Positions 14,928 to 15,130 of a stretch of DNA of 64,000 bases are shown here, in pieces. Below the pieces are notes generated by a model. The model saw nothing but the letters and a program-made list of their open reading frames with translations, made no database searches and was not told the origin of the DNA. The stretch spans positions 32,001-96,000 of the forward strand of contig JABCTZ010000007.1 in NCBI GenBank assembly GCA_018238155.1, given 5' to 3'. The first letter of the stretch is position 1. Every line of letters starts with the position of its first letter. The position numbers and the translations under genes are program-made. Source of the DNA: Candidatus Heimdallarchaeota archaeon (GTDB taxonomy: Archaea; Asgardarchaeota; Heimdallarchaeia; JABLTI01).

Positions 14928-15130
14928 CTTTGCGTAGTAACCTTCAGATTTTTTTTGTTAATTTGACTTTCTCTGCCTATGTTTCGAGCCTTCTCTTCTT
15001 CGAGGTGGTTGCCCTCTCAGAGTCAGCATTGCTCATGGTCAGAGGAGAATGCATCTCAGCATCCGTAGCAGTTATGAGTGCTTCTCGTTCACTTGCCGAT
15101 AATGAGATTTTTACTTTAAAATCCTTCCTT
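14928..15130 (-). promoter_or_regulatory. Conserved promoter plus structured 5' leader of abce1 (copy A of duplicated element)
   Basis: Reverse complement aligns with 31731-31928 from the BRE/TATA to just before the start codon; the 76-nt core is 67/76 identical. Confidence 0.85.
14977..15036 (-). CDS. Candidate leader peptide (uORF) MSNADSERATTSKKRRLET
   Basis: ATG...TAG, 19 aa; frame and length conserved in copy B with 4 synonymous changes. Confidence 0.4.
   Translation of the reverse strand: MSNADSERATTSKKRRLET

Follow-up and report, generated by a model that had tools for sequence, protein, structure and literature searches.

A covarying RNA family linked to ARAMP cassettes lies upstream of ABCE1 and rpl37e in a Heimdall-group archaeon

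Copies of a structured RNA of ~145 nt occupy the upstream regions of ABCE1 (copy A) and rpl37e (copy B) in the window, that is, the whole 64-kb stretch of DNA analyzed here. It is practically certain that the two repeats are one structured RNA, and we are equally sure of the reconstruction of its origin as the 3' end of the RAMP-HD gene in array-less, type III-derived ARAMP (Asgard RAMP) cassettes. Both copies are captured remnants of such cassettes, gene-less or nearly so, and they are members of the ARAMP RNA family rather than the dedicated leader of a translation regulon that a sequence-only reading of the window had proposed. We lean slightly towards the full statement, mechanism included, that the RNA is an RNA partner of ARAMP that would also serve as a captured 5' leader. 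Comparisons were made among 12 genomes of one Heimdall-group Asgard family, namely the source genome (G000, 4.08 Mb) and its relatives G001 to G011. Coordinates of the features in the window are collected in Table 1.

Table 1. Features of the two RNA copies and their surroundings in the 64-kb window
Feature	Position	Strand	Evidence or remark
ABCE1 (RLI)	13053..14927	-	Pfam Fer4_RLI, Fer4, 2x ABC_tran
Copy A tail: weakened H4, SD-like GAAGGUUAC, short spacer to ABCE1 start	14928..14964	-	
Copy A structured RNA	14965..15108	-	Covariance model R1, 154 bits, E 1.6e-36
Copy A H3, multi-helix domain	15044-14971	-	20/21 pairs formed
Copy A H2, GGAUGC-UGAGAU-GCAUUC	~15063-15046	-	6/6 pairs formed
Copy A H1, long hairpin	~15098-15063	-	9/10 pairs formed
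Decayed C-terminal RAMP-HD fragment	15109..15440	-	Translation, tblastn
Lineage-specific inserted block (~3.15 kb) between ABCE1 and ancestral neighbor	14928..18079		
Gene X (DUF7121; stop 18169-18167) and retained native ABCE1 intergenic region	18080..19204	-	Pfam DUF7121
lsm (Sm-like), ancestral upstream partner of rpl37e	28718..28981	+	tblastn 83%; Pfam LSM 3e-21
Block (~2.9 kb) splitting ancestral lsm-rpl37e pair	28982..31928		
AAGAAAGAAUUAUAAAGGAAAA, earlier proposed as BRE/TATA-like site	31732..31752	+	
Copy B structured RNA	31753..31900	+	Covariance model R1, 117 bits
Copy B H2	31801-31817	+	Inserted C plus U-to-G change
Copy B H3	31821-31894	+	
Copy B tail: A-tract (H4 lost), SD-like GAAGGUUAC before rpl37e start	31901..31928	+	
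rpl37e	31929..32084	+	Pfam Ribosomal_L37e, 3.4e-20

Copies, distribution and fold of the RNA

A repeat search of the 64 kb identified inverted-repeat arms at 14953-15059 and 31806-31912, 107 nt long and 85% complementary, which form by far the longest inverted repeat; the runner-up measured 42 nt at 71%. In a MAFFT alignment the gapped similarity of the two copies extended over ~200 nt and reached both start codons. Repeat search and alignment together confirmed the match between the reverse complement of 14928-15130 and 31731-31928 that had been noticed by the sequence-only reading, as well as its 76-nt core, in which 67 of 76 positions were identical with nine differences and no indels. The downstream genes were also correctly named, as Pfam found Fer4_RLI and two ABC domains in ABCE1 and Ribosomal_L37e in rpl37e. 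Neither a tRNA or tmRNA nor a CRISPR array was found in the window. Elsewhere in the window, ~12 copies of an 18-nt unit of the UUUACAUAG-ACUACAUAC type form a tandem array at 56711-56926, imperfect 12-nt periodic repeats code for a Lys/Glu/Ala-rich stretch at 46132-46909, and several repeat families with a spacing of ~1.0 and 3.0 kb at 36938-42562 indicate tandem paralogous genes with internally duplicated domains.

No Rfam family matched the window at gathering thresholds, and the E-value mode returned chance matches only (13-15 bits against cutoffs of 64-80), in agreement with the earlier statement that no known riboswitch could be recognized. We built a covariance model (R1) on 11 copies. 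BLAST and R1 retrieved 13 copies in the source genome, and covariance-model searching found 54 copies in 11 of the 12 family genomes, so the notion of a private leader present in two copies was abandoned; within this family, the search of relatives suggested along with it yielded homologs with strong covariation. With model R2, a further 149 genomes representing 26 families of the phylum outside this one gave no copy. Viral origin was rejected, since the 24 15-mer matches in IMG/VR viral contigs were chance matches and none of these contigs passed the covariance model. The copies are single and never arrayed. Those at Rpo7, Snf7, the EF-2 paralog, S19e and RFC-S group by locus across two to six genomes; these loci are old, many loci are vertically inherited, and several are stable across five or six genomes. 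The RNA is a real family without an Rfam match, and the publications consulted describe no such family.

RNAalifold, applied to a plain MAFFT alignment of 11 copies, gave a consensus of 37 pairs, 17 of which carried compensatory changes. Three domains make up this fold: H1, a long hairpin; H2, a hairpin with a nearly invariant UGAGAU loop; and H3, a closing stem around nested helices. Across the 54 copies, 89.4% of the cells were paired compared with 35-42% when partners were slid by 1-3 columns, both-side changes occurred in 30 of 37 pairs, and the covariation score was 0.38 versus 0.06-0.08; none of 500 shuffles reached the observed values, and the pair counts are somewhat inflated, because the structure of the model itself guided the alignment of these copies. 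The MFE z-score of the copy A core was -3.7. Copy B formed 7 of 10 pairs in H1, 5 of 6 in H2 and all 21 in H3, and the inserted C and the U-to-G change in its H2 gained one C-G pair and at the same time broke the family reading frame. Two helices that had been folded by eye, the hairpin GAUGC-UGAGAU-GCAU (H2) and the closing stem CUCUG-A-CC-AUG / CAU-A-GG-CAGAG, were kept in the consensus. The GAGC/GCUY stem and the two inner hairpins, CUC-UGAGA-GGG and CUC-GAAGAA-GAG, found no support; covariation backs GCU/GGC, CUCU/AGAG and GAGG/CCUC nested helices instead.

After the closing stem, a small hairpin with an A-rich loop (H4) was found in 79% of copies compared with 35% of shuffled windows. It is followed in most copies by a WGGWGAUA-type purine motif, of the AGGUGAUA type, which matches the anti-SD end of 16S rRNA; the 16S 3' end reads GGAUCACCUCCU. 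Within the innermost H3 hairpin, for example in the copy at C17:5433-5576 of the source genome (L003), the loop and 3' strand read AUCACCUC, which is identical to eight bases of the 16S 3' end and pairs with an SD-like GAGG within the RNA. Sequestration of the SD-like tail by the anti-SD-like loop, or a pseudoknot between the two, was considered and is not claimed: a copy's own loop-tail duplex reached -5.3 kcal/mol versus -5.0 with the tails of other copies and -4.0 with shuffled tails, and own pairing was no better than cross-copy pairing (permutation p = 0.17).

Origin in ARAMP cassettes and constraint on the RNA

Where complete genes adjoin the RNA, the 76-nt core belongs to the coding sequence, in frame, and the stop codon of the gene is part of the conserved CAUAG; the corresponding family stop codon of copy A, UAG at 14979-14977, falls in the 3' strand of H3. 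These full-length neighbors encode RAMP-HD proteins of 320-390 aa. An AlphaFold model (pLDDT 76) displayed an N-terminal RAMP fold, and its top Foldseek hits were all type III Csm or type VII RAMP subunits (E 5.6e-4, TM 0.22-0.35). The Pfam HD match (E 0.004) was below the Pfam cutoff, and H151-D152, H181-H182, D199 and H270 were invariant. Furthermore, a Csm3-like gene (PADLOC Csm3, 3.7e-8; Pfam RAMPs, 6e-4) precedes the RAMP-HD gene on contigs C42 and C17, where the two complete gene pairs of the source genome are located. Orthologs of the Cas7-like gene were found in 7 of the 12 family genomes and none at copies A and B themselves, and in G003 all three components are missing, the RNA as well as the RAMP-HD and Cas7-like genes. 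The family cassettes combine a Cas7-like gene and a RAMP-nuclease gene with no adjoining array, as ARAMP does.

The CRISPR arrays of the source genome are confined to contigs C12, C15 and C27. Contig C12 (9 kb), with RAMP-HD fragments at 882-2265 and a CRISPR array ~6 kb away at 7829-8977, is the only one that carries both ARAMP remnants and an array. Derivation of the RNA from a CRISPR repeat was rejected, as its alignment to the 37-nt repeat scored no higher than alignment to shuffled repeats in 9 of 10 tests. At the copy linked to an M20 peptidase (L002 474-839, minus strand, and 904-1596, plus strand; G000 C39:168511-169633), the N-terminal RAMP part is inverted and adjoins an HD-plus-tail ORF on the opposite strand, which points to an inversion within the RAMP-HD gene. 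A complete cassette on C42 (L031 2709-4940, minus strand), whose RNA is divergent (39 bits), lies directly before an EF-2 paralog, and this arrangement was seen in five genomes.

The pattern of conservation points to constraint on the nucleotides, that is, on the RNA, rather than on the encoded peptide. In two open genes, the same ten nucleotides, CUGACCAUGA, fall into different reading frames. Identity by codon position was 68/76/50% in the HD body and 80/73/69% in the tail; third positions thus reached 69% in the tail versus 50% in the HD body, with amino-acid identity being equal in the two parts. The encoded tail was predicted to be disordered (pLDDT ~27), the ORF stop ranged from -137 to +135 relative to the RNA (before it, inside it or at its end), and 21 of the 36 best copies had an in-element stop in the family frame.

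We divided the 42 best copies into three classes according to the RAMP-HD homology upstream; a broken frame through the RNA would be too crude a criterion for a gene-less copy, since the stop codon of several full-length genes lies ahead of the RNA or within it. Paired cells amounted to 92% in the 15 copies with a full-length RAMP-HD gene, 89% in the 12 copies with a fragment only (the class of copy A) and 87% in the 15 copies with no homology (the class of copy B), and in each class 20-24 pairs changed on both sides. The gene-less copies linked to RFC-S in G000 and G005 have in common an insertion that breaks the frame, and their identity is 89%, whereas the four-fold sites of RFC-S are 42% identical (saturated) and the far flank 49%, suggesting that the RNA was kept by selection after gene loss. 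The upstream 250 nt are invalid as a neutral yardstick where the gene decayed recently, as at the Snf7 and Rpo7 loci, and the argument for long-term selection in the gene-less state rests mainly on the one RFC-S pair. Moreover, well-scoring copies were present in G001, G002, G006 and G011 (64-84% complete), where C-terminal fragments but no Cas7-like gene or full RAMP-HD gene were found. This argues for persistence of the RNA even where the proteins proposed as its partners are absent.

The ABCE1 and rpl37e loci

The RAMP-HD remnant at copy A was recovered by tblastn in three pieces, 14980-15111 (80%), 15163-15291 (51%) and 15273-15377 (57%), and it is interrupted by an in-frame TGA at 15159-15157 and, further upstream, by one or more frameshifts. 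The TTTAAA at 15120-15115 that had been flagged as a promoter falls inside this remnant. The inserted block carries the RNA and the RAMP-HD remnant on the minus strand and genes of 531 aa (weak CARDB) and 194 aa on the plus strand, with the RNA at the end facing ABCE1. Beyond the block, gene X (18167-19204) is 87% identical (tblastn) to the gene upstream of ABCE1 in G009, the closest relative, whose ABCE1 shares 97% amino-acid identity and has no element before it. Alignment with G009 showed that the retained native intergenic region (18166-18080) ends in ...UUGAAG, within the native SD GAAG|GU, so the insertion breakpoint lies inside the native SD. The empty site, consisting of gene X, ~100 nt and ABCE1 with no covariance-model hit, was found in G009, G003, G005, G007 and G010. 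Altogether, an element precedes ABCE1 in 3 of 8 genomes, at differing insertion points. The cassette of G006 sits elsewhere in the same ABCE1 spacer, which indicates that the insertions in G000 and G006 were independent events, and its RNA lies upstream of an intact native promoter and SD, which indicates that a leader role is not obligatory for the RNA at each locus. A single old insertion behind the three ABCE1-linked copies was rejected in view of the five empty sites, including that of the closest relative, and the differing points in G000 and G006. An 11-mer, GCAAAGAUGAC, spans the ABCE1 start codon (14921-14931, minus strand) and recurs at 29003-29013 (plus strand), 22 nt past the stop of lsm, at the presumed former start of rpl37e; the pair may be due to chance or may be a trace of exchange between the ABCE1 and lsm-rpl37e loci.

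lsm and rpl37e form a classical archaeal gene pair, which is split at 28718-32084 in the source genome. In 9 of 11 family genomes lsm lies 25-45 nt before rpl37e, and the full RNA precedes L37e in 1 of 11. The block between them contains DUF998-like, Arf-family GTPase and 166-aa genes on the minus strand, ~430 nt without a long ORF, and copy B, which is nearest to the S19e-linked subfamily and has no detectable RAMP-HD homology upstream. AAGAAAGAAUUAUAAAGGAAAA is identical in S19e-linked copies, and in G006 it is part of an open RAMP-HD frame reading K-R-K-N-Y-K-G-K; what had been taken for the BRE/TATA site of copy B is thus inherited coding sequence. A promoter role of AAGAAAGAAUUAUAAAGGAAAA at copy B is possible and remains putative, with archaeal promoters called by eye and TATA-to-RNA distances inconsistent between subfamilies. 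At rpl37e of G009, the flanks of copy B including AAGAAAGAAUUAUAAAGGAAAA are kept and the RNA core is deleted, indicating that the core is dispensable for rpl37e there. Both ABCE1 and rpl37e have lost their native upstream regions in the source genome.

Across the family, the neighbors of the RNA are rich in information-processing genes (ABCE1, L37e, S19e, an EF-2 paralog, GluRS, tRNAs, Rpo7 and RFC-S), which account for ~9 of 21 distinct downstream genes or positions; an M20 peptidase, a PfkB kinase, a DUF6320 membrane protein and an E2 enzyme are found among the others. For 29 of the 42 best copies, a same-strand ORF starts no more than 120 nt from the element. In these 29 copies, no T4 or T5 run occurs between the RNA and the next ORF, and the gap has a median of 32 nt and is 49% A. 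Two other best copies lie before a same-strand tRNA gene (L037 and L049) and three abut a convergent tRNA (L010, L040 and L069), ending ~10 nt away, and these tRNA-adjoining copies keep the SD-like end although no protein gene follows. The proposal of a translation-gene leader survives in part: the element is structured, covaries and is positioned to be read into ABCE1 and rpl37e, but the same RNA precedes unrelated genes. An old translation regulon finds no support, because the link to both genes is recent and arose by insertion, G009 has no element at ABCE1, and lsm and rpl37e are adjacent in most family genomes. The alternative of a MITE, which had also been named, is contradicted by the absence of flanking repeats, the mostly same-strand ORF downstream and vertical inheritance.

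Proposed mechanism, alternatives and known systems

Insertions of ~3 kb, each with a remnant of an ARAMP cassette and its RNA at the gene-proximal edge, have cut ABCE1 and rpl37e off from their native promoter and ribosome-binding regions. With its SD-like 3' end, the element would supply a ribosome-binding site to the next gene. Since no terminator follows the RNA and the element brings a ribosome-binding site of its own, the RNA would be transcribed into the next gene as its 5' leader; such co-transcription is probable. Expression of the captured gene would then pass through the element's RNA, which would help to keep the RNA after decay of the cas genes. The RNA would also act as the protein-binding partner of the RAMP proteins of ARAMP (Cas7-like/RAMP-HD), and this binding is a tentative proposal to which we give a little less than an even chance. 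The transcription start, the binding of Cas7-like or RAMP-HD proteins and any regulatory effect are inferred. A bolder version, in which ARAMP is not guide-less but carries an RNA with it and inserts at ribosome-binding sites of core genes, the leader RNA tethers a Cas7-like/RAMP-HD complex there, and the RNA outlasts lost cas genes as a host leader, is quite unlikely; if true, genes of translation, transcription, replication and ESCRT would be controlled or held hostage by a CRISPR-derived effector in the archaea most closely related to eukaryotes.

The copies might instead be independent small-RNA genes acting only in trans, as scaffold or guide for ARAMP effectors encoded elsewhere, with the host-gene position being just a landing site. 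The complex fold with conserved loops is typical of RNP scaffolds, the RNA sits at the end of an effector operon in 15 copies, the source genome keeps both complete gene pairs on C17 and C42, the one genome without the RNA (G003) also lacks both proteins, and type IV-B Csf complexes assemble on non-CRISPR RNA according to a preprint (bioRxiv 10.1101/2020.07.31.231399). However, no terminator marks a 3' end, the SD-like end abuts the next start codon, copies persist in four genomes in which no effector genes were found, and neither complementarity nor a duplicated target sequence was found around the cassettes; we consider this explanation unlikely. Persistence where effector genes were not found would equally suit a host cis-regulatory leader of a translation/ribosome regulon, independent of ARAMP and sensed by a host factor such as a tRNA, r-protein, Lsm or L7Ae, and so would the ~9 of 21 information-processing neighbors and the resemblance of the hairpin loop and 3' strand (AUCACCUC / AACCACCUC) to the 16S 3' end. 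Such a leader is improbable, given that the RNA was ancestrally part of the RAMP-HD gene, that it also precedes the M20 peptidase, PfkB kinase, DUF6320 and E2 genes and abuts convergent tRNAs, that its occurrence at a given host gene is scattered and of recent date (3 of 8 genomes at ABCE1, at differing insertion points, and the full RNA in 1 of 11 at L37e), and that own loop-tail complementarity does not exceed that between copies (p = 0.17).

Similarly improbable is a mobile ARAMP element that has the RNA as its working end, with the RNA helping to choose or join an insertion site such as a ribosome-binding site and the gene-less copies being scars. Independent ABCE1 insertions at different points in G000 and G006 with none in the nearest relative, a breakpoint in G000 inside a native SD where the element ends in an equivalent SD-like motif, and copies abutting tRNA genes would fit such an element. 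On the other hand, no terminal repeats or target duplications were found, nor any direct repeats flanking three cassettes and both ~3-kb blocks; Pfam detected no integrase, Cas1 or transposase in either block; several loci are stably inherited across five or six genomes; IMG/VR viral contigs contain no copy; and scars would not keep compensatory pairing. The same pairing speaks against inert pseudogene relics, or a peptide or antisense ORF as the conserved unit, because compensatory changes occur in copies without any gene. Copy A does follow a recognizable decayed gene and an antisense frame is open in both copies A and B, yet the same nucleotides are conserved in different frames with conserved third codon positions, family-frame stops interrupt 21 of 36 copies, and the antisense frame was stop-free in only 13 of 24 tested copies with a broken RAMP-HD frame, single-base indels shifting the frame, so this reading is hardly credible. 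An ARAMP RNA that would be a protein partner and a captured leader is the reading that we compare with known systems below.

Structured RNAs are encoded at the ends of mobile elements, as exemplified by the IS110 bridge RNA and OMEGA RNAs. Similarly, the RNA described here is structured and lies at one end of an inserted block, beside the host junction. Unlike in those systems, recombinase and TnpB/IscB-type genes are absent from the blocks, no loops matching a target or donor were recognized, and mobility is inferred from comparative insertions only. Ribosomal-protein and translation operons carry structured 5' leaders with autogenous regulation, and the element resembles them as a folded element directly upstream of translation genes, beside the ribosome-binding site. 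It differs in that the same element precedes unrelated genes, comes from a mobile/defence cassette and is recent at ABCE1 and rpl37e; no rRNA-mimic logic has been demonstrated for the RNA. At these two genes, a piece of a cassette has replaced the native 5' regions, splitting lsm from rpl37e, and appears to be kept by selection on its fold, which would be a clear example from Asgard archaea of a CRISPR-derived RNA that has captured host genes or been exapted by them.

CRISPR-associated RNAs that do not come from arrays include tracrRNA, scaRNA and creA, some of which regulate host genes (PMC8730458), and type IV-B Csf complexes are reported to be built on non-CRISPR RNA (bioRxiv 10.1101/2020.07.31.231399). 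The present RNA is likewise encoded beside cas genes and is not an array spacer, and those RNAs load into or redirect RAMP/Cas complexes. In contrast to tracrRNA, scaRNA and creA, it has no repeat-derived sequence, anti-repeat or evident guide segment, overlaps a cas coding region and possesses an SD-like end.

ARAMP and HRAMP (Makarova et al. 2020, CRISPR J 3:156, as summarized in PMC8730458 and PMC12669027) are array-less in the current CRISPR classification, and how they work is termed enigmatic (PMC8730458); both summaries present ARAMP as lacking an array, and neither of them describes an RNA component of ARAMP. By definition, ARAMP combines a Cas7-like RAMP with a second, Cas5-like RAMP joined to a nuclease domain, and most of its loci have a distinct Cas1. 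The cassettes described here resemble ARAMP in having a Cas7-like gene and a second RAMP fused to a nuclease (here HD), with no array beside them, and in being restricted to Asgard archaea. They differ from it in that every family cassette ends in a covarying ~145-nt RNA and that many loci consist of the RNA only. The RNA is a new family for Rfam-type annotation and, as a covarying RNA joined to an effector gene, a concrete candidate for the missing RNA partner of ARAMP that is testable by binding and structure work.
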